From an uncultured Gammaproteobacteria bacterium (lineage in GTDB: Bacteria > Patescibacteriota > Microgenomatia > Levybacterales > UBA12049): a DNA stretch of 64,000 nt. Within the stretch, counting starts at the first letter, position 1. Each line of letters starts with the position of its first letter. The stretch is from NCBI GenBank assembly GCA_964653195.1, contig CAZZCX010000003.1, positions 11,688 through 75,687 on the forward strand. The letters are read 5' to 3'. Both the position numbers and the translations under genes were made by a program. The notes under the pieces were generated by a model that was not told where the DNA came from, made no database searches, and saw nothing but the letters and a program-made list of their open reading frames with translations. Positions 35,700 to 47,139 of this stretch are shown in pieces.

Positions 35700-35703
35700 A
35701 AAG

Positions 35704-35777
35704 TGGGCCCGAGAAGATTCGAACTTCTGACCTTTGCAATGTCAATGCAACGCTCTAACCAACTGAGCTACGAGCCC
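35704..35777 (-). tRNA. tRNA-Val (anticodon GAC)
   Basis: Manual fold of the reverse complement: acceptor GGGCUCG/CGGGCCC, D-loop AGUUGGUUA, anticodon stem UUGCA/UGCAA with loop UUGACAU, and T-arm AGAAG-UUCGAAU-CUUCU. No encoded CCA. Confidence 0.8.
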
Positions 35778-35895
35778 AAAAAACTAGGTTCAATTGTAAC
35801 AAAATGAATATGCGAAAACAACGTACATACAATTTTATACCAATCATTCATGTTATAGAAATACTTTCTTAATTATATAAAAAACTAATATATAC

Positions 35896-36714
35896 TTAAG
35901 AAGATTTATATCTTTGAAGATAAGTACCTAATTCAGGAACATTATTTATGTAATGGTATGGGGCTGTCAGTAAACCAGATAGATTTGGACCAACTAATAT
36001 ATTACTTCCAGTCGCATTATTTACAAACGCGGGAATATCATTATGGTCGTTGCCAGCAAATAATACATCTGTTGGGTCAAAACCTAATAACTCCCTAATA
36101 TCACTCAGTCCAGTACCTTTATCAATACCGCGCCTATTAACATTTACTAGTCCTTCGTTTGTACTAGCGTTAATACCATTTGGTAATGCTGTAATCCATT
36201 CGTCATTTAGGGGTTTAATTGCAAGCATACTGGGATTATCGATTTTTGCCTTATGTTCGAACGAACTTGGAGGTAGGTGAGAAACTACTGCAAAATGTCC
36301 ATATTTTTTTTGTAATTGTTCTGCGTTGCTAGCGTTAGGAGTCCAGACAACAGCTTTTCTACGTGTCTTCTCAGGAAAATAAGCAACGAAATTGACGTCT
36401 CCCATAAGTGTGGCGTCTACAACTGCGGTTATTTCACTTGAATGCAATGGATGGTATATGATGTTTTGCCTGCCTCCCCATTTTGTAATCCTTGAACCAT
36501 TTTCTAAACCAACGAGAATTCCTCTTCTGACTAATGATGGGTAATTTAAGCCTAGTGCTTCTCGAGCCCGCTTATAGCCTCTTCCTGTAAGTATTGTGGT
36601 AATTACTCCTTCTGAATAAAGATTGCGAAATCCTTCTATAACTTCAGGCGGTATCCCCTCACTATTTCGTATTGTGCCATCAATATCAAAAATACCCAAT
36701 CGTATGTTTTCCAT
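35896..36714 (-). CDS. HAD-superfamily hydrolase (Cof/HAD-IIB-like phosphatase)
   Basis: Motif I FDIDGTI near the N-terminus and motif III/IV AGNDHNDIPAF near the C-terminus. Confidence 0.7.
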   Translation of the reverse strand: MENIRLGIFDIDGTIRNSEGIPPEVIEGFRNLYSEGVITTILTGRGYKRAREALGLNYPSLVRRGILVGLENGSRITKWGGRQNIIYHPLHSSEITAVVDATLMGDVNFVAYFPEKTRRKAVVWTPNASNAEQLQKKYGHFAVVSHLPPSSFEHKAKIDNPSMLAIKPLNDEWITALPNGINASTNEGLVNVNRRGIDKGTGLSDIRELLGFDPTDVLFAGNDHNDIPAFVNNATGSNILVGPNLSGLLTAPYHYINNVPELGTYLQRYKSS

Positions 36715-36747
36715 AAATATAAATTATACTATAGGATTATTAAAAGA

Positions 36748-37596
36748 TCAAATTAAAGCTCCGATTGAGGCAGGATGATTTATTGTGGTTATTTTAAACT
36801 CTCGTGCTTGCATAAATTTAGGTAGTTTTTTTGAATAATTCTTTGTAACTTGCGGTAACCATGATTCCGCAGATTTAGTTACAGAACCTCCAAATACAAA
36901 CAATTCCGGGTTATAGAAATAAGATAAGTTCACGATAAAGTTACTTAGATAGTTCACATACATAATTACAATATCATTATGTTTTCCATCAAATATTTCT
37001 TCAGGCGGGAGGATTTTACCTGTTTTATAAATACTTAACGACTTTAGACCCTTACCTGCTAAAAGATTATCTGCGGTTTCAAATTGTTTTTTTTCATAAC
37101 TCCAAATATCCATGGGAGATATTTCTCCAGCCATATTACTAGAACCCCTTAAAATAATGCCATTCTCTATAGCAACTACGCGAATACCTGTGCCTAAGTT
37201 TATGTAGACTAAAGAATTATGTTTTTTACCGTACCCATATAATTTTTCTGCTTTTGCCATGCATATAACATCGTTATCTGAATCAAAAGATTTGTAGTTT
37301 AGATACTTGTTTGCAATAGAACTAATATCAACCCCATTTCCTCCGTTTATTAAACTGGAATATATAATTCTGTTATTCATAATCGCACAATTTATACTTA
37401 CACCAAGTTTTTCATATCTTGAACCTCCAAATTCATTAGCTATAAGCACAAAAAGATTTTTAAGATCATTTAAATTTTTATGTTTAAATAAAATCGTAGT
37501 ATCTAGGCGTATTTCTTTTATTATTTCTAGGCTTTTAGTAAATTCTACACAAAGTATTTTTGTACCGCCTATGTCGATGGAGAGAAATTTTTTCAT
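36748..37596 (-). CDS. ROK/BadF-type sugar kinase (ASKHA fold)
   Basis: N-terminal LSIDIGGTKI phosphate-1 motif. GGSVTKS lies near the C-terminus. Confidence 0.6.
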   Translation of the reverse strand: MKKFLSIDIGGTKILCVEFTKSLEIIKEIRLDTTILFKHKNLNDLKNLFVLIANEFGGSRYEKLGVSINCAIMNNRIIYSSLINGGNGVDISSIANKYLNYKSFDSDNDVICMAKAEKLYGYGKKHNSLVYINLGTGIRVVAIENGIILRGSSNMAGEISPMDIWSYEKKQFETADNLLAGKGLKSLSIYKTGKILPPEEIFDGKHNDIVIMYVNYLSNFIVNLSYFYNPELFVFGGSVTKSAESWLPQVTKNYSKKLPKFMQAREFKITTINHPASIGALI

Positions 37597-38741
37597 TTTT
37601 TTATATAATAAAATGGCTTGTTTTCTTTATCTTCTTTCCAGTAGACCCTAATAAATGTTTCCTTCATTCTCAATACATCGATTAGATATTCAATAGTAAA
37701 TATATTTTTTTTCACATGAAAAACAGGGACACCATGATACGGAAGTCGAATACAATTTTTATTTACTGGAATTATACCTAATCGATTTGGTTTAGGAGAA
37801 ACTGAAAGTGTAATTGCGTTAGGTACAGTTTTCTCAATAAAATTTAAGTCATCTCTTACCATTAAGTATGCATGATAGTTTAACAAAGTTTCATGGGTCA
37901 TAGCTTTTATATATTTTCGTATTTTCACTACTTCTGCTGTCGCTATTTTATTTCTGAGTTTTATATTATATACATCCATAAGTACCGAATTAGATACACC
38001 TAGATCTCGTGTATTAATTATTCTAGAAATGGAAAGCTTAGCTCCTTTATATTTTTTTAAAAAGTTTTTATCGGCATTTAGATAAAGGTTTTTAAGTTTA
38101 TTTACTTTTTCACCAAACACATCATTGAAATTATTTATCAGTTGTTCCATACTTTCCAATTCAACTATAAATAGTGAATTATCCCAGTTGAATTTTTTTA
38201 TAATTTCTATTAACAAGTCTTTATATGAATCATACTCAGATTTATCCATCTTGTTATACCTTCCAAATACACCTTCAGTCACAATTGTTATCTTTGCCCC
38301 AGGTTTATAGACCTTGCGAATTAACTCAGTTAGAAAATGTAATCTTTTTAAAGATAAAACTTCTCCCATATCAGGGAGCGATCGATTAGTTTTTATTGGA
38401 ACAGGCATTTTAAACGGAAAACCAAGAATTGTCAGCTGTATTGGTTTATTTTGATTTATAAAATATTGAAATGATTCTAGCCAGAAATCAGTGTTGTCAA
38501 TAACAAATTTTTTAGGCCCAAAAATAATTTCATCATCTACGAAAATATTTAGAATTTTTTCAGCGATAGAATTACCACTTAGAATTAATTCTGGATAAGA
38601 TAAAGAAGATAGTAGATCTTTCAAGTTTTCTGTAGAAGCTAATCGGTTCGGTTTAAATACCGCTTTAATTTGCTTCTTAGATAAATCCATGAAGTTCGTA
38701 CTTGGATAAACATATGGATTTGATTTCATTTTCATATTCAT
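37593..38741 (-). CDS. Uncharacterized enzyme-like protein, distant paralog of the upstream 435-aa ORF
   Basis: It shares a conserved block with 38741-40048: LSLKRLHFLTELIRKVYKPGAKITIVTEG versus AEFEMLRYQAVMGRVAKEIGLNINFTIVDET. It is coupled to both neighbours by overlapping stop/start codons. Confidence 0.35.
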   Translation of the reverse strand: MNMKMKSNPYVYPSTNFMDLSKKQIKAVFKPNRLASTENLKDLLSSLSYPELILSGNSIAEKILNIFVDDEIIFGPKKFVIDNTDFWLESFQYFINQNKPIQLTILGFPFKMPVPIKTNRSLPDMGEVLSLKRLHFLTELIRKVYKPGAKITIVTEGVFGRYNKMDKSEYDSYKDLLIEIIKKFNWDNSLFIVELESMEQLINNFNDVFGEKVNKLKNLYLNADKNFLKKYKGAKLSISRIINTRDLGVSNSVLMDVYNIKLRNKIATAEVVKIRKYIKAMTHETLLNYHAYLMVRDDLNFIEKTVPNAITLSVSPKPNRLGIIPVNKNCIRLPYHGVPVFHVKKNIFTIEYLIDVLRMKETFIRVYWKEDKENKPFYYIKK

Positions 38742-40048
38742 TATTTATTATTTCTTATTCTTCCAAGCATAGGTTTGTTATCTAGATAAACCAATTGCGC
38801 TTCGCAGACATTTTGCATTTCCTGAAGCACATTAAATGGGATATTTCCGACATAATCATTATTGGAACCGTACCCAGCTATTCCATGCATAGGATTGACA
38901 GTTCTTCCCATAAATTTAGTTGGATGAGGTAGAAAGCTCCACCTATGTGTACTTCTCGTTACGCCTCCATAAACTCTACTCTCGTCTTGATATTCGGGAT
39001 ATTCTGCGGTTAAGCCTTTTTCTTGTACAGCTTGCTTTGCTTTACCCCTCAAAGCCATCATAGCATCTATATGCGTAGTTAAACCAGTTAAATATTGAAG
39101 TGTTTCTTGAGGTAAACTGCCGAAATCGCCACTCATTGCAGATTTTCTAATATAATCTATTGCATCAGGATCTACTCCTTGTGCAATTAAGCCACTGTCG
39201 GGGATGCAATCTAAGAGGGTGTATATCCTTCTCATAAGAGCATTGTTTTGTCTGGGTTCTTTTAATAGTCCAGCAGTTTTATCTTTAGATAAAATTAACT
39301 GGTCTTCATATGCAGCGTGGAATTCATCTCCAATAGGAAGAGCTATTGAATCCCTTAGAGACCTAATACGAATTCGGTCTGAAACTCCTTGTTCTTCTAA
39401 GTATCTAGTTGCAATTAAACGGTTTACTTTAGAATCACTATTATTAAAACCTAAATACGGATCTTCGGGTAATATATCTGTTTCGTCAACGATTGTAAAA
39501 TTTATATTTAAGCCAATTTCCTTTGCTACTCTTCCCATCACTGCTTGATATCTTAACATTTCAAATTCTGCATAATCTATCTTAGTATCTGGAGAGCCTG
39601 TTCTACTAGGCGATTGTGTTTTGCTCAAAGCATAATATTGAACCAGATTTACTCCTATTCCGTTGGCCGCTCGTTCACAAAAATGAGTTATATCTTCTTC
39701 TGTCGGTTTATATGCATCATTCCCGGTGGCGACCCAAGGTTTTATAAATTCAGAATAAAAAGCTCCTGCGACTTTAACTGTGGAATTTGCTGATTCTCTA
39801 ACTCTTACAGGCAATCCTTTTCTCATTTCCTTAATATTTAATCTTTTTTCAATTACCTCAAGCCGTTTGCTTACTTCATCGTCAATATCAAAGGTATTTA
39901 AACCTTCTTTTTTAGCGACTCGTTGTAAATCAAAGTAATATAAATCAGCAGTTCTCTCTTCTTCCGAACGTTTTAAATCTGGACCGAATAATAAATCGCC
40001 TCGCCTAGAATGTGTTATTGGTTTATTTCTTTCAATCGACATAACCAT
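38741..40048 (-). CDS. Uncharacterized enzyme-like protein (435 aa), with non-K/N-rich composition and higher GC than the background
   Basis: A long ORF with no family recognised by eye. Its start is immediately preceded by a hairpin and T7. Confidence 0.35.
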   Translation of the reverse strand: MVMSIERNKPITHSRRGDLLFGPDLKRSEEERTADLYYFDLQRVAKKEGLNTFDIDDEVSKRLEVIEKRLNIKEMRKGLPVRVRESANSTVKVAGAFYSEFIKPWVATGNDAYKPTEEDITHFCERAANGIGVNLVQYYALSKTQSPSRTGSPDTKIDYAEFEMLRYQAVMGRVAKEIGLNINFTIVDETDILPEDPYLGFNNSDSKVNRLIATRYLEEQGVSDRIRIRSLRDSIALPIGDEFHAAYEDQLILSKDKTAGLLKEPRQNNALMRRIYTLLDCIPDSGLIAQGVDPDAIDYIRKSAMSGDFGSLPQETLQYLTGLTTHIDAMMALRGKAKQAVQEKGLTAEYPEYQDESRVYGGVTRSTHRWSFLPHPTKFMGRTVNPMHGIAGYGSNNDYVGNIPFNVLQEMQNVCEAQLVYLDNKPMLGRIRNNK

Positions 40049-40226
40049 AAAAAAACCCGCCTATTGGCGGGGATCCTTTCTTTTGGTTGATACCAAAAAT
40101 CCTCCCGCCCTTAGGGGGTAATAAGGAGGACAAAAATCATGTTTAATGCGTGTTTCATAAAACCAGAAATTTATTCTAGCACATCATTAATTGCATGACA
40201 AGTATTTATTTGAATATGAAAAATCT

Positions 40227-41063
40227 TTATGTAAAAATTACTTGTGAGCTAGGCGTTAGTCCAAATTCCTTCGCAGCACTTTCTCCTTGAATCACAAGCT
40301 CAATAAATCGTTTATCTTTATACCCAGAGCTTCCGAGAATTAGCGCTTTATTACCATTAGGTACGTCTCTGAGCCTGGTAAAGCATTTAAATACACCTAA
40401 ATTGGTGTTTATATCTTTTCCATTTTCAAATTCGATTTCTTTCGGAAGAATAGTTGTTTTACAGTTTCCGAAATTATCGACGTACCAAATGGCACTCTTT
40501 ACTTGAGGTACATGGCTAAGGGTGTAGGATGCAGCAGGTACGGTTATCCCGTCCACCAGCCATTTTGCTACTCTTGGCTGGAATTCAAAGCTTCGGAACT
40601 GAGTATTTATTATTTGCATAGCTAGGACGACTGAGATGATTTTATCCTCTGCCATTTTATTTGCGACTTCGGGTATATCTAGCAGTTGAATAGAATTTAT
40701 AAGTCTAAGTTTTTTCACCATTGATAATGTTAACCCATCAATTGTTGAAATAACGAGCGTATCATTGATGTAGAAATATCCAAAAGGAGTGCCGTTAGGC
40801 CATTTTTTCCCCTTGCCATGGCGATTGGCTACGTTTACAAGTATTATTCCTTTTTCGCCATTTGCTGCATCCAGTGTGTCTATAAGGCATCCGGCTGCTT
40901 GGTATTCTGCGGGGTCATGAGAATTATTAGATACAAGATTTCCTCCTACTCCAATTATCGTTGGAGATATTCCGAAAAGTGAACTCACTCTCGTCCCAAG
41001 TCTGGCTTTTACGTTCTCATCGAAGCAATCGTTAATTATAGTAATAAATCTCGTTTTTTCCAT
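40227..41063 (-). CDS. DUF62 / S-adenosyl-L-methionine hydroxide adenosyltransferase-like protein (the fluorinase/chlorinase SalL fold family)
   Basis: The C-terminal IWYVDNFGNCKTTI resembles the D.FGN..TNi motif of the SAM-hydrolase C-domain. The N-terminal ITIINDCFD and the central YFYINDTLVISTIDGLTLS resemble the TDFG and PDNGLLS blocks. The match is by eye only. Confidence 0.45.
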   Translation of the reverse strand: MEKTRFITIINDCFDENVKARLGTRVSSLFGISPTIIGVGGNLVSNNSHDPAEYQAAGCLIDTLDAANGEKGIILVNVANRHGKGKKWPNGTPFGYFYINDTLVISTIDGLTLSMVKKLRLINSIQLLDIPEVANKMAEDKIISVVLAMQIINTQFRSFEFQPRVAKWLVDGITVPAASYTLSHVPQVKSAIWYVDNFGNCKTTILPKEIEFENGKDINTNLGVFKCFTRLRDVPNGNKALILGSSGYKDKRFIELVIQGESAAKEFGLTPSSQVIFT

Positions 41064-41248
41064 AAAAAAACCTCCTTTCGGAGGCTGTTCGTAATAGATA
41101 CTATAACGAAACCTCCGTTAGGAAGTCATCATTTCCATCATATTTACTGAATAAATTTTCATATAGATTACTCTACTTTATATACGATTTTAATATCAAA
41201 TTCAATAAGCAAATTGAGTTAATTTTGAATTCTGAATTCTAAATTCTA

Positions 41249-41944
41249 TTATCCTGTTTGCGTTGCTGGAGTGCGTTCGTTATTTAGAGTAAAGCTGGTA
41301 CCATGTTTTTTAGCCATTGCGCCATATTTCTTTAGTGATTTTTTACTTTTCATCACAGAAAGCCACGCGCCAGCATCTTCAACTTTCATTCTTATTTTTC
41401 TGACCTCCAATAGCAACCATTCAAAAAAATTAGTGTAATACTTACCGGATTTGATGGGCTTATCTTCAACAGTAAGGACAGCAAATTCAGCTTTTAAAAT
41501 GCCAGACGAACCAATTAATCGTTTAAGTTCATTCATGATATCTTCTATTCTATTCTCAAGCTGTACAGCCTCACTTCTTGATAATCGTTCTGAGCCCTGA
41601 ATTACCTCAGCTCTATAATTAATTCCTCCCAGAATATCCATTCGCTTTTCGGGTCTTCGACTTTCAGTTTGATTCTTTTTTGTTCTAATATCATGATTTC
41701 TTTTGCTTTTTAAATCTATTGCCTGGCCTTCAATCATTACGCCACTGAAATAATTATCTGATCTTTCAGTACTATCATAGCCTAATAGCTGAGAAATAAA
41801 GTCTGAACCTGTGCCTGATAGCTGATCTTTTATTGCACTTGTAGTTTTTTTTAATTCTGATGCAGCAGTAGAATTATCCAGTTGAGGATCTTTTTCTATA
41901 GGATTAACTTTGCTTATGGCAGGCTGACTGGCTTTTTTGATCAT
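41249..41944 (-). CDS. Hypothetical protein
   Basis: A 231-aa ORF with a hydrophilic N-terminus and no recognised motif. Confidence 0.3.
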   Translation of the reverse strand: MIKKASQPAISKVNPIEKDPQLDNSTAASELKKTTSAIKDQLSGTGSDFISQLLGYDSTERSDNYFSGVMIEGQAIDLKSKRNHDIRTKKNQTESRRPEKRMDILGGINYRAEVIQGSERLSRSEAVQLENRIEDIMNELKRLIGSSGILKAEFAVLTVEDKPIKSGKYYTNFFEWLLLEVRKIRMKVEDAGAWLSVMKSKKSLKKYGAMAKKHGTSFTLNNERTPATQTG

Positions 41945-41959
41945 ATTGCCCGCACTCTA

Positions 41960-42805
41960 TCACAAGTTTTTCAAAAAATCAAGGGTCTTTTGCTGTCTAA
42001 GTATACTTGCTAGCATATAACTGTTTTTTTGTAAGTTTTCCATCTCTATAGGATCTTTTGCTTTTTGAATTGCTTCTTTAAGCTCTTTATCCTCAATTGT
42101 TATCTTTTCTTCTTCAGCAATTTTTTGAAGGATAAACTCTAGTTTTATGTCACCTTCTGCTTTGACTGCATATTCATTACGTAGTTCTTCTGGCTTTTTT
42201 TGTGTAGACGCAAGATACTGATCAAGCGTAAGTCCTAAACGTTTAATTTCATCTAATGTTTGAGCAAGTAGCCTATCCACTTCCTGTTCAATCATTATTG
42301 TAGGGACTGAAACTGTTGAGGCACCCAAAAGTTCTTTTACGATTTCATCAAGACTTACTTCTTGCTTCTTTTCTTCTTTACCTGGCAAGATTATTTTAGA
42401 TTTGGCAGTAACTTTTTTTATTGCATCTTTATATTTGCCTAGCTTTACTTCAGGCATTTCACAAGTTATAGCAATTATATTCCAGTCTTTATCATCTGGG
42501 AGTGTATCGACATGAATTTTTGGATTCATGATTGGTTTTATTTTATGTTCTTCAACAGCTTTGACATAAGCATTTGGTAGTAGTTTTCTTAGTACTTCTT
42601 CTTTGATCTTAGCTTTATTTATAGTAGGTTCTACTATATGACGGGGTGCTTTTCCTTTTCTGAATCCGGTTATTTCGGCATTAGATACGTAAGTTGTGAT
42701 TATTTCATCTGTAGTTTTTTTTATCTCAGGCTGAGTAATGCTGATCGTTAGATGGATCGTACCATCTTCTTTGCGTTCAAATTTGGAGTTAGATATATTT
42801 GTCAT
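41960..42805 (-). CDS. tig: Trigger factor (ribosome-binding N-domain plus C-domain; no PPIase domain)
   Basis: The ribosome-docking signature GFRKGKAP is at the expected position. The 281-aa length means the FKBP domain is absent. Confidence 0.75.
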   Translation of the reverse strand: MTNISNSKFERKEDGTIHLTISITQPEIKKTTDEIITTYVSNAEITGFRKGKAPRHIVEPTINKAKIKEEVLRKLLPNAYVKAVEEHKIKPIMNPKIHVDTLPDDKDWNIIAITCEMPEVKLGKYKDAIKKVTAKSKIILPGKEEKKQEVSLDEIVKELLGASTVSVPTIMIEQEVDRLLAQTLDEIKRLGLTLDQYLASTQKKPEELRNEYAVKAEGDIKLEFILQKIAEEEKITIEDKELKEAIQKAKDPIEMENLQKNSYMLASILRQQKTLDFLKNL

Positions 42806-42916
42806 AGTTTAATATGTGCGGGCGAGAGGATCCTTCGACTATGCTCAGGATCTAACTTACCAGCTTTTTTTCAGTTTCCTCAAATTTAAAACTTCGACTC
42901 TGAGTTTATCGAAGAG

Positions 42917-42997
42917 TGCGGGCGAGAGGACTCGGACCTCCACGGATTTCTCCACAAGGTCCTAAACCTTGCGTGTATACCATTTCACCACGCCCGC
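42917..42997 (-). tRNA. tRNA-Leu (anticodon UAG)
   Basis: Reverse complement: acceptor GCGGGCG/CGCCCGC, anticodon stem CAAGG/CCUUG with loop UUUAGGA, and a long variable arm. Confidence 0.7.
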
Positions 42998-43243
42998 AGG
43001 TATATGTCCTCGTCTTCCCTAGGCAAGCTTATTTATTATAAAACATTTTAGACTAAATGAAAATAGATGTATATTTAAATGTATCTAGGTTTACAAAATT
43101 GATTTGAGGATACAATATGGAGTTTTTCCACAAAAAATAGGATCGCCTCAGGTTTGGGCTGAGGCCATCCTATCTAGGCGTGAGTATAGCATTTAACTAT
43201 AGGTTTGTCAAGTAGCAATTTATGATGTTTTTAATACGATTCT

Positions 43244-43822
43244 TTACTGCATTTTTTCCATGAAGTGGTTTACGGAGCGAGCCCAGCTACCATTACTGGA
43301 TGGAGTGTACATGCTCATAATCTGTTCTGGTGTTATAAGTCCCCGATCTCGGTATTTTGTCGCCAACGTTTTTGTTACAGTTTCTATAGCTTGAGGATAA
43401 TTCTCAAATCTGGTTACTTTACCGCCATAAATTCCAAATCCCCAGCAATTATGAGAATCTATAGGAATTTTTTTACATAGATTTGATTCCTGCATTGCTA
43501 TTGCCGGTATTAAGCGAAAATCCATTTCATAATTATCAGCTGTTTGGACTATGAATTCAGCATGAGGCTCAAGCGGTGAATTGTATTTTGAGAGGAATTG
43601 TCTGACCGTTTCTATCCTTCCTTCCTTCAAAATTATGTTACCTGAAAAATTACTTGAAGATGAAGGAAGCGCAGCATATGTAAATGCATTTACTTTTTTG
43701 TCATTTGCATAAACCAATCGATCAGTATCTCTTGGGATTGTGGTTAAGAGGAAAATAAGAGTGAAAAGAAATAAAAATGGCGCTATAAAAGAAAACGTTA
43801 CAAGCAGAATAACTTTTCTCAT
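43244..43822 (-). CDS. Membrane-anchored peptidoglycan hydrolase-like protein (lysozyme/glucosaminidase-type domain)
   Basis: An N-terminal TM. AIAMQESNLCKKIP...CWGFGIYGG resembles the catalytic-Glu region of lytic transglycosylase or glucosaminidase folds. Confidence 0.45.
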   Translation of the reverse strand: MRKVILLVTFSFIAPFLFLFTLIFLLTTIPRDTDRLVYANDKKVNAFTYAALPSSSSNFSGNIILKEGRIETVRQFLSKYNSPLEPHAEFIVQTADNYEMDFRLIPAIAMQESNLCKKIPIDSHNCWGFGIYGGKVTRFENYPQAIETVTKTLATKYRDRGLITPEQIMSMYTPSSNGSWARSVNHFMEKMQ

Positions 43823-43936
43823 CCACTTTATACTTACAAATATTTATCTAGTTGTCAAGTTTTGCGATCAATTTATGAAAAAGATGATATATTTAATTGT
43901 GTGACATAAGATCGTTTGTTACAATACAAATTGCTC

Positions 43937-44022
43937 GCCCTGGTGGTGGAATGGTAGACGCGCTGGCTTCAGGTGCCAGTGTCCGCAAGGACATGGGAGT
44001 TCAAGTCTCCCTCAGGGCACCA
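43937..44022 (+). tRNA. tRNA-Leu (anticodon CAG), CCA encoded
   Basis: Acceptor GCCCUGG/UCAGGGC, anticodon stem CUGGC/GCCAG with loop UUCAGGU, a long variable arm, and T-arm GGGAG-UUCAAGU-CUCCC. Confidence 0.8.
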
Positions 44023-44136
44023 GTTTTGCAACGCAAAATACTTTAAACTTATGACTTAAAACTATATTAAAAATAAGTTATAATGCATTAAGTTCTAAGT
44101 TTATAGTTCATTGTTATTTTTACCTTTTAAAAATAC

Positions 44137-44219
44137 GCGGATGTGGTGAAATGGTATACACGCAGCCTTGAGGTGGCTGTGCCGTAAAAAGCGTGGAGGT
44201 TCAAGTCCTCTCATCCGCA
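44137..44219 (+). tRNA. tRNA-Leu (anticodon GAG)
   Basis: Acceptor GCGGAUG/CAUCCGC, anticodon stem CAGCC/GGCUG with loop UUGAGGU, and a long variable arm. Confidence 0.75.
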
Positions 44220-44223
44220 CAAA

Positions 44224-44297
44224 GGACGATTAGCTCAGCTGGCTAGAGCGCTTCATTTACACTGAAGAAGTCGGGGGTTCAAATCCCTCATCGTCCA
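44224..44297 (+). tRNA. tRNA-Val (anticodon UAC)
   Basis: Acceptor GGACGAU/AUCGUCC, anticodon stem CUUCA/UGAAG with loop UUUACAC, and T-arm GGGGG-UUCAAAU-CCCUC. Confidence 0.8.
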
Positions 44298-44302
44298 CTA
44301 TA

Positions 44303-44569
44303 ATGCCTTACGTTTATATTTTATTAAGCGAAAAGTACAATACATATTATATTGGGAGTACTAAAGATCTTATTCGTAGGTTAAAAGAACATACCTCAGG
44401 TGCATCAAGATTTACAAAGTATAGACTCCCACTTCGCCTGGTTTTTAGTCAAAAGTATCCAGATATAAAAAATGCCAGATCTGTCGAGAATTGGATTAAA
44501 AAACAAAAAGATAGGAAATTATTAATTAATATAATTAAAGAAGGTAAGATAAATAAAGAATTTGTATAG
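44303..44569 (+). CDS. GIY-YIG nuclease domain protein (88 aa)
   Basis: YVYILLS...YYIGSTKDLIRRLKEH...ENW matches the GIY-YIG core (GIY, YIG, Arg, Glu, Asn). Confidence 0.75.
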   Translation: MPYVYILLSEKYNTYYIGSTKDLIRRLKEHTSGASRFTKYRLPLRLVFSQKYPDIKNARSVENWIKKQKDRKLLINIIKEGKINKEFV

Positions 44570-44591
44570 AGCGGTCCGGTGTACACCGGAC

Positions 44592-44624
44592 AAGTCGGGG
44601 GTTCAAATCCCTCATCGTCCACTA
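44592..44624 (+). repeat. 33-bp perfect direct repeat of the tRNA-Val(UAC) 3' end (copy 2; copy 1 is 44268-44300)
   Basis: aagtcgggggttcaaatccctcatcgtccacta is identical at both sites, bracketing the GIY-YIG ORF. Confidence 0.9.
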
Positions 44625-44660
44625 TTTGTAAACTTATTTGTAAATACAATAGTAAATAGA

Positions 44661-45566
44661 TCAAGTGGGTTGAACGCAGACTCTATTCGTAATAAGACTT
44701 ATTATATTCGTTAGCTGATTATTGACAGGTGCATGAAAGTAATCGTTTGGACCTGAAGCCACATTTCTCATCATATTTTGAAGTTTGTCATTTAATTTTG
44801 CATCTGCATGATCATCAGTAAAGGCGATTGTAAATATTCTAGTCCCATTGGCTTTTATTCTCGCTGCTACATCGGTTGGATCTTGATTGGTATCAAAACA
44901 CCGACATGCACTTGCAGCCAGTGGATGTCTCATACAGTATTCACCATTCTGACCCCCGGGGCACAGATTATTCATTTGGCGTGATTCGGGTATTCCATCA
45001 GATATAAATACTAATGAGAATTGGAAATCAGGAAATAAACCTTTTCCTAGGTTGATATTTCTTTCAGCGACAAGGAAAGCATCCCTGCTGTGAGTAGCTG
45101 TCTGTGGGCCCATAGCGCTAACTTCTTCGAGAAAAAGCGTTTTAGATTCATTAAAAATAGAAAAAGGTACCCTTTCTCGTACTTGTTCGCTATATGTCTG
45201 CATGGCGATTGCTCCTGTTGGCGGAAAATATTCCGCAAAAGTACGCAGTGCTGTCTTTAATTGGTCAATTTTCGAATCAGGTTCACCGAATTGCATAGAT
45301 CCTGAATTATCTATAAGAAAGTTTATAGCAGTTTTGTTTTTGCATTGAAGCACTCCAAAGGTACCTAATTGCAACCCTTCCTGCGTAGTGCTTCCTGTTC
45401 CGAAAAGTTCTGTCTCGTATGTGCCTTGATTTGTAAATGGTGACAGTCGTGTGAATACTCCTCCTGCCAGAGCAAATGCCAATATTAAGATCAAAATAAC
45501 AATAAAGTCTCCGCTTATTAGATTGCGTCTTTTTTTACCTTGATTTATATTTATACTTCCTGACAT
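44661..45566 (-). CDS. von Willebrand factor A (VWA) domain protein with an N-terminal TM anchor
   Basis: MIDAS motif DNSGSM. A later TIAFTDDHAD segment fits the VWA fold. Confidence 0.65.
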   Translation of the reverse strand: MSGSININQGKKRRNLISGDFIVILILILAFALAGGVFTRLSPFTNQGTYETELFGTGSTTQEGLQLGTFGVLQCKNKTAINFLIDNSGSMQFGEPDSKIDQLKTALRTFAEYFPPTGAIAMQTYSEQVRERVPFSIFNESKTLFLEEVSAMGPQTATHSRDAFLVAERNINLGKGLFPDFQFSLVFISDGIPESRQMNNLCPGGQNGEYCMRHPLAASACRCFDTNQDPTDVAARIKANGTRIFTIAFTDDHADAKLNDKLQNMMRNVASGPNDYFHAPVNNQLTNIISLITNRVCVQPT

Positions 45567-45572
45567 AGCTTA

Positions 45573-45938
45573 TTATAAAGGTTGTGGTCCAGGTGGTTTA
45601 GGTTTCTTGGTCGGCTTACTACCGCCGTTGTTATTTCCATTATTATTTTCGTCGTCATCATCCGGGGTTCTGGTAGGTCTTGGTGTAGGGGTGACAGTGA
45701 CTACGATAAACGTACACGCATGTAGATTGTCTCCCTTACAGCTTGGATCAGGAATAGTTATGTATTCGGTGGTGATTCGAGTCCGGGGAGTGTTAGGTAT
45801 GAACAAAAAACCACCAATAACAAGGCTACCTGCTGCTATTGCGAGTATTATACTTATCCACCCTATTCCTTTTGCTTTTAGAATTTTCTTATTTTTTATG
45901 TGTTTAGTTTTATTTTTTAAACTTATTTTTTTTCTCAT
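45573..45938 (-). CDS. Small membrane-anchored protein with a Pro/Thr/Asn-rich low-complexity tail
   Basis: A TM segment WISIILAIAAGSLVIGGFLF is followed by TVTPTPRPTRTPDDDDENNNGNNNGGSKPTKKPKPPGPQPL. Confidence 0.4.
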   Translation of the reverse strand: MRKKISLKNKTKHIKNKKILKAKGIGWISIILAIAAGSLVIGGFLFIPNTPRTRITTEYITIPDPSCKGDNLHACTFIVVTVTPTPRPTRTPDDDDENNNGNNNGGSKPTKKPKPPGPQPL

Positions 45939-46036
45939 CTAATTAAAGAGTAGATGAGCATTTTATTAAAGTCAAGTAAACTCTAAGCATATTGTCATAC
46001 GTCAGTAAAATTGCTATTATAAGTTGGTTCAGAAAT

Positions 46037-46109
46037 GCCGAGGTAGCCAAGGTGGTCACGGCGGGTGTCTGAAGAACATCAGATATGTGTTCAACTCACA
46101 TCCTCGGCA
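46037..46109 (+). tRNA. tRNA-Phe (anticodon GAA)
   Basis: Acceptor GCCGAGG/CCUCGGC, anticodon stem GGUGU/ACAUC with loop CUGAAGA, and T-arm AUGUG-UUCAACU-CACAU. Confidence 0.65.
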
Positions 46110-46229
46110 CTTAAAATATAATTGATTTCTGTATATTATTTGTTTGAAAATTAAAAGAATCTGATTACTTTTTATCAAAGTGGAGAGATTTTTGCATCAA
46201 AAATATAGTATTCCTGCTAAATTTTTTTA

Positions 46230-46967
46230 CTACTGAGGTGTTGTACCGTATATAGTTATTAGAGTTCCTGGTGTTTCCTTAGTCGCATATGTGACATTTT
46301 TTGTACTGGGAGGATTTGCCCAATTATAAAGTTTCGCGACGTCTTCTTCTCGCATATTCACACATCCATGACTCATAGGATTTCCGAAATTATTATGCCA
46401 GTAAGCGCCATGTATCCCATATCCTTTACTTTTTGGTACTTTGTCATTATAGAAAAACATTGTGTAGGGTACATTGGGTAAGTTATAATAATTTGCGCCT
46501 GTTCCTCCCTGCATGCGGGTATAGCGGAGCTTTATCCAAATACGAAAATCACCAGTTGGAGTTGGCCACCAGGGTTTTCCTGAAGAAATCGTGAATTCAT
46601 GGATTAGTGTATTATTTTCGAAGGCGTACAATTTTTGTTTACTTAAGTCGACATAGATCCGCTTACTGTCTTCCGCCGTATCTCCAAGGACATTATTATT
46701 CACAGCAATTTTATATGGTTTGTCAGCTAACGCTGGACCAGCGATTTTTTTGCCTTCAAATTGCCCAGTGTTGTCATCTGAATAGTGGCCTGATAAATCA
46801 GAGATACAGCTTATGCTATTTGCACAATCGAGGTCATTTGTTGGTTTAGATGGGAGAAGTAGAATTGAGAAAATGCTTATGAAAAGTAGAGAAAATATAA
46901 GAATCAACTTTCTTTTATGATATAACAGTCCTTTCACCTTTTTATTTTTATTGTTTTTTCGAGGCAT
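46230..46967 (-). CDS. L,D-transpeptidase (YkuD domain), N-terminally anchored
   Basis: Catalytic motif SHGCVNM (His, Gly, Cys) near the C-terminus. Confidence 0.75.
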   Translation of the reverse strand: MPRKNNKNKKVKGLLYHKRKLILIFSLLFISIFSILLLPSKPTNDLDCANSISCISDLSGHYSDDNTGQFEGKKIAGPALADKPYKIAVNNNVLGDTAEDSKRIYVDLSKQKLYAFENNTLIHEFTISSGKPWWPTPTGDFRIWIKLRYTRMQGGTGANYYNLPNVPYTMFFYNDKVPKSKGYGIHGAYWHNNFGNPMSHGCVNMREEDVAKLYNWANPPSTKNVTYATKETPGTLITIYGTTPQ

Positions 46968-47067
46968 ACATATAGCGTAGGAAAAAAATAATTGTTTGTA
47001 AAGAAGGAAATTTATCTAATAAAATAAATCTATTAATTTAGAATAAAAATATAATTATGAGTTTGTG

Positions 47068-47139
47068 AGCGGTGGACCGGATTTGAACCGGCGACCTCGT
47101 CCTTGGCAAGGACGCATTCTACCACTGAACTACCACCGC
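47068..47139 (-). tRNA. tRNA-Gly (anticodon GCC)
   Basis: Reverse complement: acceptor GCGGUGG/CCACCGC, anticodon stem CGUCC/GGACG with loop UUGCCAA, and T-arm GCCGG-UUCAAAU-CCGGU. Confidence 0.75.

Follow-up and report, generated by a model that had tools for sequence, protein, structure and literature searches.

SegB of phage T4 is a free-standing GIY-YIG homing endonuclease encoded in a tRNA cluster; it recognises the T-stem-loop and is inherited preferentially with co-conversion of its flanks (PMC2330249), and it drives tandem amplification of the tRNA-segB unit (PMC13096335). In this study, a 64-kb stretch of DNA (the window) was analysed, in which an open reading frame (ORF) for an 88-amino-acid (aa) GIY-YIG nuclease directly follows the tRNA-Val(UAC) gene and is itself followed by a partial copy of this tRNA. 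The region is probably a small homing-endonuclease-type selfish cassette that is nested at the tRNA gene and uses tRNA-derived arms as portable homology. This reading draws on the anatomy of the locus, the presence and absence of the cassette among close relatives, its linkage to tRNA genes, a covarying hairpin borne by the element, intact catalytic residues, and arms and flanks of foreign origin. SegB is the nearest precedent, because in both cases a GIY-YIG gene lies among tRNA genes and no intron is involved. However, the Seg genes are phage-borne, whereas the cassette is chromosomal in bacteria of the candidate phyla radiation (CPR), its 88-aa nuclease consists of a catalytic domain of the Slx1/UPF0213 type and nothing else, and the cassette includes a partly duplicated tRNA in which a palindrome takes the position of the anticodon arm.

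Several other described systems resemble the cassette in part. The best sequence and fold matches of the nuclease are the UPF0213 proteins BH0048 (1zg2) and EF2693 (1ywl), which have the same size and no auxiliary domain, but the nuclease described here is the sole gene of a mobile cassette. Both structures fall in the bacterial Slx1-like group of minimal GIY-YIG proteins, which lack auxiliary domains and a conserved C-terminal Asn, and are predicted to act in DNA repair and to be inherited mostly vertically (Dunin-Horkawicz et al., PMC1564403). Integrative elements that use tRNA 3' ends share with the cassette the insertion at a tRNA gene, an exact direct repeat of the tRNA 3' part (31-34 nt here), and the restoration of the tRNA; unlike them, the cassette has no integrase, measures 0.3 kb instead of several kb, and has a mirror 5' form and a hairpin that replaces the anticodon arm. 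Restriction-modification units are likewise nuclease units without a transposase or integrase, flanked by direct repeats of >30 bp that are single-copy in the empty allele (PMC2853133). Their targets are arbitrary unique sequences, whereas the target of the cassette is a tRNA gene and its repeat can be imported from another genome. Group I introns, some of them with homing endonuclease genes, occur in tRNA genes of Patescibacteria, in a study that reports no GIY-YIG cases (PMC13011429). They share with the cassette the host phylum and an anticodon-loop target (a partial tRNA-Leu copy described below ends at position 35/36), but the cassette has no ribozyme and leaves the tRNA uninterrupted. 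Integron gene cassettes consist of a promoterless single ORF and a hairpin-forming palindromic site, form arrays at a fixed site, and leave ORF-less remnants. The likeness to them is one of analogy only: the present family also combines a promoterless ORF with a palindrome and includes an array (L021) and ORF-less remnants, but it has neither IntI nor attI.

Occupied and empty alleles at tRNA-Val

The window ORF had no exact match in the contig collection. Relatives were found instead through homologs of the nuclease and through the 192-aa protein encoded in the flank (43244-43822, minus strand), whose homologs on longer contigs were 100%, 97%, and 85% identical. The contig with the identical flanking protein (L099) showed the same arrangement as the window. 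The contigs with the 97% homolog (L093 from ENA and L094 from JGI) and the 85% homolog (L105 from Logan) were empty at tRNA-Val: the 3' end of the tRNA (...TCGTCCAC) abuts the flank directly, the repeat is present in a single copy, and the junction reads ...ATCGTCCAC/CGAAATAGTAGCG in all three, where the slash marks the boundary between tRNA and flank. A further contig, L001, whose ORF is 97% identical to that of the window, is occupied within the same flank and reads ...ATCGTCCAC/TATAATG, the ORF, TAGAGCG, the palindrome, and AAGTC...ATCGTCCAC/CGAAATAGTAGCG. Compared with the empty alleles, the occupied allele of the window, L099, and L001 carries a 324-bp insert, and a 31-nt sequence found once in L093, L094, and L105 is duplicated. 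The sequence of tRNA-Val(UAC) itself was the same in occupied and empty relatives in the multiple alignment. A sequence-only reading of this DNA had taken the region for a small mobile cassette that targeted a tRNA 3' end and regenerated it, and had proposed a search for sites with one copy of the repeat and no ORF; such sites exist in three relatives, and together with the tRNA-linked copies described below they support that claim. Because the 85% outgroup L105 is empty, a gain in the lineage of the window and L001 is the parsimonious reading.

Metagenome assemblies can collapse repeats, and the structure might be an assembly artefact, a chance duplication, or a tandem tRNA remnant. This is hardly credible, since the two 34-nt copies match without a difference, the design is common to more than 80 related loci, the occupied structure recurs in L099 and L001 (both from ENA, different samples), the empty structures come from three independent sources (ENA, JGI, and Logan), and a 31-nt repeat cannot be collapsed in k=141 contigs. 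A direct repeat of a tRNA 3' end is the classical att signature, and a deletion of ~620 nt abuts the second repeat, so that the repeat could be an att scar left by an island or prophage whose integrase recognised the 3' end of tRNA-Val as attB. The scar of a larger integrative element was also among the options of the sequence-only reading, and it is not supported. The repeats are separated by just 290 bp, in which the GIY-YIG ORF is the only coding sequence; no recombinase was found among the ORFs of 41-48.5 kb; the design of ORF, hairpin, and arm recurs at many tRNAs in many genomes; and att sites do not feature a palindrome substituted for the anticodon arm. An att scar is therefore very improbable.

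At the adjacent tRNA-Leu(GAG) gene, L093 and L094 carry a different cassette (L093 2100-2526, minus strand), which is absent from the window, L099, L001, and L105. This cassette precedes the intact tRNA (type B, see below) and consists of a 5' partial tRNA-Leu copy that runs to anticodon position 35/36, with the palindrome CTGCCTGCCGGCAGGCAG in its D arm, and a GIY-YIG ORF. Both independent assemblies show a frameshift in the ORF, whose reading frame runs into the true tRNA and ends there. In addition, L093 and L094 have other sequence throughout the spacer that extends back to tRNA-Leu(CAG), a replacement that looks like the co-conversion of flanks expected from a foreign donor. Two different cassettes have thus been gained or lost at adjacent tRNA genes among strains a few percent apart.

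Organization of the cassette

The cassette adjoins the last gene of a plus-strand tRNA cluster, which comprises tRNA-Leu(CAG) (43937-44022), tRNA-Leu(GAG) (44137-44220), and tRNA-Val(UAC) (44224-44298) as called by ARAGORN and Rfam (47-70 bits). The features of the locus are collected in Table 1. The perfect 33-nt repeat of the tRNA-Val 3' end noted in the sequence-only reading was confirmed, and the exact match was found to extend to 34 nt (44268-44301 and 44592-44625), with a start-to-start distance of 324 nt. The 33-mer has exactly two copies in the window, and its sub-words of 12-20 nt occur at these two places only; the repeat is far beyond chance. Comparison with the empty sites indicated that the true duplication is 31 nt and that the extra TAT in the window repeat stems from the junction of a later deletion.

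The two repeat copies do start at 44268 and 44592 as had been proposed, but homology to the tRNA begins earlier, at TAGAGCG (44567), and resumes after the hairpin. TAGAGCG at 44567-44573 is identical to 44243-44249 of the true tRNA-Val, and the same feature was seen in related loci. Local alignment showed that the second copy corresponds to tRNA positions ~21-76, in which the 17-nt anticodon arm is swapped for the palindrome. The GC-rich hairpin described earlier is indeed present as a perfect 18-bp palindrome, but the c given as its last base should read a and already belongs to the repeat, as its first base. The acceptor 5' strand partner GGACGAT for the right-hand tRNA arm is absent from the cassette sequence.

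The ATG of the ORF lies 5 nt past the discriminator of tRNA-Val, and its TAG stop is located inside the D-loop/D-stem remnant of the partial copy. As had been claimed, this is the sole gene between the repeats (Pfam E 8.9e-15), and no additional gene was found there in the window or in the related loci read. A promoter scan detected no promoter-like site between tRNA-Val and the ORF. The promoter-like site upstream of tRNA-Leu(GAG) is likely to be the source of transcription for tRNA-Leu(GAG), tRNA-Val, and the ORF; expression of the ORF would depend on tRNA transcription in the lack of its own promoter, and the ORF is probably read from the tRNA transcript.

Table 1. Positions of the cassette, its parts, and nearby features in the 64-kb window.
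Feature	Position	Strand	Basis
tRNA-Leu(CAG)/tRNA-Leu(GAG) spacer; empty site for the different GIY-YIG cassette of L093 and L094	44023..44136	+	
Promoter-like site upstream of tRNA-Leu(GAG)	44056..44084	+	consensus match only
Intact tRNA-Val(UAC), resident gene abutted by the cassette	44224..44298 (ARAGORN end 44297/8)	+	ARAGORN; Rfam RF00005, 70 bits; alignment
Left direct-repeat copy: tRNA variable loop, T arm, acceptor 3' strand, discriminator, then CTAT	44268..44301	+	exact match
Duplication proper: first 31 nt of the left repeat copy	44268..44298	+	comparison with empty sites
324-bp insertion relative to the empty sites of L093, L094, and L105; phase ambiguous within the 31-nt repeat	44299..44622	+	multiple alignment; L093 and L001 sequences
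88-aa GIY-YIG nuclease ORF	44303..44569	+	Pfam
TAGAGCG: D-stem 3' strand remnant and position 26; start of the partial tRNA copy	44567..44573	+	local alignment
Perfect 18-bp palindrome/hairpin GTCCGGTGTACACCGGAC in place of the 17-nt anticodon arm	44574..44591	+	
Right repeat copy: partial tRNA 3' arm (variable loop, T arm, acceptor 3' strand)	44592..44625	+	
Junction of the ~620-nt deletion relative to L093, L094, L105, and L001	44623..44640	.	multiple alignment

Related cassettes at other tRNA genes

A tRNA or a part of one preceded each of the first four nuclease homologs that were looked up. Metagenome contigs were scanned with an 11-sequence protein alignment, a search that is unbiased for tRNAs, and 80 loci were obtained; adding the window and the four initial homolog loci gives the 85 loci considered here. 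A same-strand tRNA was located within 20 nt of the ORF, or overlapped it, at 69 of the 85 loci; a search for the ORF at other tRNA 3' ends had been proposed in the sequence-only reading. The other 16 loci mostly had a tRNA or partial tRNA within ~120 nt or lay at contig ends. The chance of a gene lying this close to a tRNA is well under 1% by a rough estimate from tRNA density, not a computed value.

The tRNA-linked loci showed two polarities. In type A (16 loci including the window), an intact tRNA is followed after 1-16 nt by the ORF and then by a partial tRNA that runs from the D loop to the 3' end, and the stop codon of the ORF is the TAG of the D loop; tRNA and ORF overlap by 1 nt in four type A loci (L018, L040, L041 and L077's neighbours aside). 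In the 53 type B loci, the ORF and then the intact tRNA come after a partial tRNA that covers positions 1 to about 50, and the stop codon is U8-A9-G10 of the intact tRNA, with an offset of usually -10. A close parallel to the window was seen in L002, where tRNA-Ala(GGC) is followed by the ORF 1 nt on, GCGCG, the palindrome of the window, and the 3' end of tRNA-Ala, repeated exactly over 31 nt. The anticodon arm was the sole tRNA segment absent from the partial copies. Distant homologs in Paceibacterota and Howlettbacteria again showed linkage to tRNAs, with other hairpins: in L115 (Howlettbacteria), a partial tRNA-Lys(CUU) copy carries TCCCGCCGTTGGCGGGA instead of the anticodon arm, and in L111 (Paceibacterota), tRNA-Val(GAC) lies 3 nt after the ORF. 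No Rfam family other than tRNA (intron, transfer-messenger RNA, or other) was found in the window region at E values up to 10 or in 8 loci at gathering score.

The partial copies do not always match the tRNA beside them. The second arm of L004 is identical to tRNA-Ala of L002 at 30/30 positions, and compared with the local tRNA-Ala it scores 22/30, about 26/30 identical; the arm of L080 is closer to tRNA-Val(GAC) of the window than to its own neighbour. The arms can thus be of foreign origin. This bears on the explanation that the cassette is inserted as a transposon or cassette without homing. The exact 31-nt duplication around the insert, single-copy in the empty site, could arise by staggered cuts ~31 nt apart, at the anticodon-stem/variable-loop junction and at the end of the tRNA, followed by fill-in to give a long target duplication; restriction-modification units with target duplications of >30 bp and no other mobility gene have been documented (PMC2853133). 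Alternatively, a circle of ~324 bp containing the ORF, hairpin, and tRNA arm could integrate by a single Campbell-type crossover in the arm or palindrome and be excised by the reverse reaction, in the manner of integron cassettes. One crossover of a small circle would reproduce both polarities, the two-hairpin structures, and the arrays, and the D-stem remnants and arms of L004 look as if exchanged across the palindrome, as would fit a crossover in the hairpin. However, GIY-YIG enzymes cut and do not ligate, a pure target-site duplication is contradicted by the foreign arms, and the argument from L004 rests on matches of 7-8 nt. Insertion of this kind, by either route, is unlikely.

Two loci showed a more elaborate layout. 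In L013 (2939-3410) and L080 (2821-3305), outer 5' and 3' partial copies that bear hairpins and have complementary acceptor strands (GGTCGCG/CGCGACC and GGGCACT/AGTGCCC, respectively) surround a different intact tRNA and the ORF. From this arrangement, the resident tRNA appears to have been split and functionally replaced by the inner tRNA, a layout like that of cleave-and-rescue systems; split forms would be the natural counterpart of synthetic gene drives that work in this way. In L021 (2946-3572), two tandem cassettes with a period of 306 and 90% identity lie before one tRNA-Gly(GCC), and the second ORF has lost its start, with ATA where ATG is expected. In addition, ORF-less partial tRNAs that bear the palindrome adjoin intact tRNA-Ala in L008 (6072-6130), tRNA-Pro in L011 (2330-2480, minus strand), and tRNA-Val in L019 (560-700, two in tandem), and they look like the scars of lost cassettes. 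Foreign arms, split tRNAs, arrays, scars, and nested hairpins fit a cycle of invasion, decay, and re-invasion by selfish nuclease genes. No published description of tRNA-nested Slx1-like GIY-YIG cassettes with hairpin-bearing partial tRNAs was found in open-access papers or preprints. This widespread family accounts for many incomplete or unusual tRNAs called in CPR assemblies, such as the tRNA-Val of L018 and the tRNA-Ser of L083, which constitute an annotation hazard.

A covarying hairpin carried by the element

The 19-mer GGTCCGGTGTACACCGGAC (44573-44591), which contains the palindrome, is unique in the window, with a chance expectation of 0. The palindrome is also present in the tRNA-Ala(GGC) cassettes of L002 and L004 and beside the tRNA-His locus L022, and ORF-less copies of exactly this palindrome occur in a Woesebacteria genome. 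Since the same palindrome sits in tRNA-Ala(GGC) cassettes, the hairpin is part of the element and not a derivative of the local anticodon arm; an origin as a mutated local anticodon arm was rejected on this ground for the clade of the window. Across the family, the type of hairpin tracks the protein clade and not the tRNA isotype. In the genome collection, the exact 19-mer was found in 8 DNA stretches. Three are CPR contigs belonging to two assemblies, Shapirobacteria (the contig of L002) and Woesebacteria, and the other five are in unrelated genomes without a nearby tRNA; these five were judged to be chance matches, one of them (L007) after inspection of its sequence. The palindrome gave 0 matches in viral contigs, and the nuclease matched no PHROG family; the cassette is therefore not phage-derived.

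The hairpins of the family are GC-rich and perfect, conform to the consensus N-Y-CCG-R-Y-G, 2-3 nt, C-R-Y-CGG-R-N, and are usual in the partial copies of both polarities. A covariance model (hairpin model R1), built from 36 hairpins with their flanks, gave ~80 full-length matches in 77 sources, with one match within the window. All but one of the matches were on the strand of the ORF; the exception, the ORF-less L011, was on the strand of the adjacent tRNA-Pro. Compensatory double changes were seen in 4 of the 8 stem pairs (G-C/U-A/C-G, C-G/U-A, A-U/G-C, and U-A/C-G), while CCG...CGG was invariant. The 100% pairing in the training hairpins is partly circular, because these were chosen by complementarity; the matches from the search repeated the pairing pattern with very few mismatches. 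On the plus strand, 6 G-T wobbles and 2 C-A mismatches were counted in the stem, a difference that is not significant.

The palindrome could be a docking or recombination site for the nuclease, it could stand in for the target in a form that is not cleaved, or it could stabilise the RNA as a hairpin. It could act as an RNA hairpin, as a single-strand DNA hairpin or cruciform, or as a duplex bound by a dimer. A role as an intrinsic terminator was rejected, since there is no T-run, 0 terminator-like sites were found, and the hairpin of the mirror form precedes the ORF. It is also unlikely that the partial tRNA is a substrate of RNase P or RNase Z, because GGACGAT is missing from the cassette and the z-score of the fold is only -1.6.

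Many partial copies contain more than one hairpin. Nested or tandem GC-rich CCGAYG...CRTCGG hairpins accumulate in the D loop, T arm, and anticodon arm, at L026 (1020-1170), L040 (1983-2049), and L115 (1380-1470) and in the upstream regions of L045, L047, L048, L054-L056, L067, L070, L081, and L084, where they look like proliferating mini-palindromes. Hairpins were also seen in genes called as tRNAs by ARAGORN. A hairpin-bearing tRNA-like gene in L018 (2927-3001), called tRNA-Val(GAC), has the anticodon arm GTCCGATGACATCGGAC, a 17-nt near-palindrome; this gene may be functional, and it hints that the hairpin derives from a tRNA-Val anticodon arm plus one base. The tRNA-Ser(UGA) call at 1113-1189 of L083 is a pseudo-tRNA that bears the hairpin.

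The nuclease

The ORF product matched the Pfam GIY-YIG family (PF01541) with 55.2 bits (cut-off, 22.6; E 8.9e-15) over residues 1-71. In an alignment of 35 sequences with 38-57% identity to the window protein, apart from one with 97%, Y16-I17-G18, R26, H30, and E62 were invariant and Y5 was nearly invariant. These residues make up the catalytic set of GIY-YIG enzymes, and those of the window protein correspond to Y6, Y17, R27, H31, and E75 of I-TevI. An AlphaFold (AF2) model with a predicted local distance difference test score of 87 has the elements E-E-H-H-E-H-H, which contain the beta-beta-alpha-alpha-beta-alpha fold. Foldseek ranked 1zg2 first, followed by yeast Slx1 (probability 1.00) and the catalytic domain of I-TevI (0.66-0.82). 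In a phmmer search of the PDB, UPF0213 proteins alone were matched (BH0048 1zg2, E 2.5e-7; EF2693 1ywl, E 1.3e-3). No invariant Asn after E62 was found in the 35-sequence alignment, and the 88-aa protein has no C-terminal DNA-binding domain joined by a linker as in the Seg and I-TevI types. The group I intron endonuclease model TIGR01453 scored 21 bits, below its cut-off of 56, and PADLOC gave just motif-level matches to larger proteins. The nuclease is thus a minimal Slx1/UPF0213-type GIY-YIG enzyme, a bare catalytic domain, and not of the Seg or I-TevI type. The proposal of a homing-endonuclease-like element thus stands as to the type of cassette, which we favour, but not as to the enzyme, which is minimal and Slx1-like instead of a classical homing endonuclease.

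The structures of bacterial Slx1-like/UPF0213 GIY-YIG proteins have been solved since 2005, and their function has not been established; the cassette offers a concrete role for them. If the 88-aa enzyme does recognise the palindrome of 14-18 bp or the structure of a tRNA gene, it would be among the smallest specific nucleases known.

The affinity to Slx1/UPF0213 also suits the idea that the nuclease is a passenger, neutral or useful to the host in repair at heavily transcribed tRNA loci or in defence, that spreads passively by homologous recombination between conserved tRNA genes. Such a nuclease would ride on tRNA promoters, and the partial tRNA and hairpin would serve the expression or stability of its RNA. 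In keeping with this, the ORF is promoterless and starts 5 nt after the tRNA, the hairpin is placed at the 3' end of the mRNA or, in the opposite polarity, in its 5' leader, the wobble count on the plus strand leans toward G-T, and the left junction of the L093 event lies in the neighbouring tRNA. However, that count is not significant, and the patchy presence and absence among near-identical strains, the frameshifted or start-less copies, the scars, the arrays, and the split resident tRNAs are marks of a selfish element and not of a housekeeping gene. A passenger nuclease is accordingly rather improbable.

The window and L099 are identical over the 480 nt upstream of the ORF (43823-44302). 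Their ORFs differ at 7 of 267 positions, with 4 non-synonymous and 2 synonymous codon changes, and downstream the difference is 2-8%. This pattern suggests a recombination boundary at tRNA-Val and the lack of strong recent constraint on the ORF.

Proposed mechanism of spread

We infer that the nuclease drives the movement of the cassette. The mobile unit would comprise the GIY-YIG ORF, the D-stem remnant, and the GC-rich palindrome, and it would be followed by the tRNA copy from the variable loop to the 3' end. The 88-aa nuclease, probably as a multimer, would break a cassette-free tRNA gene in or beside the anticodon arm. A break at this position is suggested by the arm that is not duplicated and by the copy in the Leu cassette, which stops within the anticodon (35/36). 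The broken left end, which is the 5' part of the tRNA, would pair with the full tRNA of the donor, and the broken right end (positions 44-76, about 31 nt) with the partial copy of the donor. About 31 nt is close to the minimal length for efficient RecA recombination. Repair synthesis in the course of double-strand-break repair would then copy everything between the two paired ends, and the recipient would then have the ORF and the hairpin behind an unbroken tRNA, followed by the displaced 3' arm of its own, as in L001 and the window relative to L093. The same copying would yield the mirror image, a 5' partial copy and ORF before the tRNA, and arms on both sides of the cargo would yield the split form, with the resident tRNA divided and a replacement tRNA inside. 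Because the arms are tRNA sequence, the cassette would be independent of homology in the surrounding genome and able to move between strains and between tRNA isotypes. With this 0.3-kb design, a selfish gene could invade essential, conserved tRNA genes without killing them, with the tRNA serving as portable homology, which bears on the exchange of DNA among the reduced genomes of CPR bacteria.

Two traits of homing genes, namely presence and absence at the same locus and flanks that are co-converted or foreign, were found here by sequence comparison. A number of observations weigh against homing. Since the tRNA is identical in both alleles, a target within it persists, and the logic by which an insertion destroys its site does not apply; the protected occupied allele of homing genes was not seen, and to be specific to the empty allele, a site would have to measure at least 35 bp and span the anticodon arm and the downstream flank. 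The array of L021 suggests continued susceptibility and re-invasion. The protein is a catalytic domain only, without the DNA-binding extension of SegB or I-TevI, and it falls among the Slx1/UPF0213 enzymes, which are considered to cut specific structures in DNA repair. SegB-type enzymes combine a catalytic domain with a DNA-binding domain. The 4 non-synonymous and 2 synonymous changes relative to L099 show no strong recent constraint on the ORF, although the numbers are tiny. The empty sites at tRNA-Val could be precise losses by recombination between the 31-nt repeats, but parsimony favours gain. Finally, the left junction of the Leu event in L093 lies at the neighbouring tRNA-Leu(CAG) and not in the partial copy, and homologous recombination between conserved tRNA genes, with no part played by the nuclease, could have moved that cassette.

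Because the tRNA is unchanged after insertion and the enzyme has no DNA-binding domain, a structure-specific mode of action, in which the palindrome is the site of docking, cleavage, or crossover, is a serious alternative, even if not a probable one, and the same applies to insertion as a small circle through one crossover. A wider claim can be put forward tentatively: the cassettes may form a distinct class of mobile element, in which a minimal structure-specific nuclease, with a palindrome of its own and tRNA arms, inserts at, splits, and replaces essential tRNA genes. Such a class would be integron-like or a natural form of cleave-and-rescue, with arrays and hairpin-bearing pseudo-tRNAs across the CPR, and the hairpin would be its recombination or cleavage site. 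The homing-type cassette nested at the tRNA gene remains the reading that we prefer.

Genomic surroundings

The G+C content of the window is 34.7%, and the genes in the neighbourhood of the cassette are cellular (they encode trigger factor, a VWA protein, and an L,D-transpeptidase). Among the names borne by homologs of the nuclease and the flanking protein are Candidatus Levybacteria, Microgenomates, Paceibacterota, Shapirobacteria, and Woesebacteria. The cassette thus resides on a CPR/Patescibacteria chromosome. No further match to hairpin model R1 or to the GIY-YIG profile was found elsewhere in the 64 kb. Seven tRNA genes lie within 11.5 kb (35703-47139), with a cassette at tRNA-Val(UAC) only.

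The deletion of ~620 nt downstream of the cassette was found in the window and L099. The missing sequence holds a 138-aa ORF on the opposite strand (equivalent to 1950-1340 of L093). The deletion begins exactly where the partial tRNA copy ends, and it may reflect a break made at the border of the cassette.

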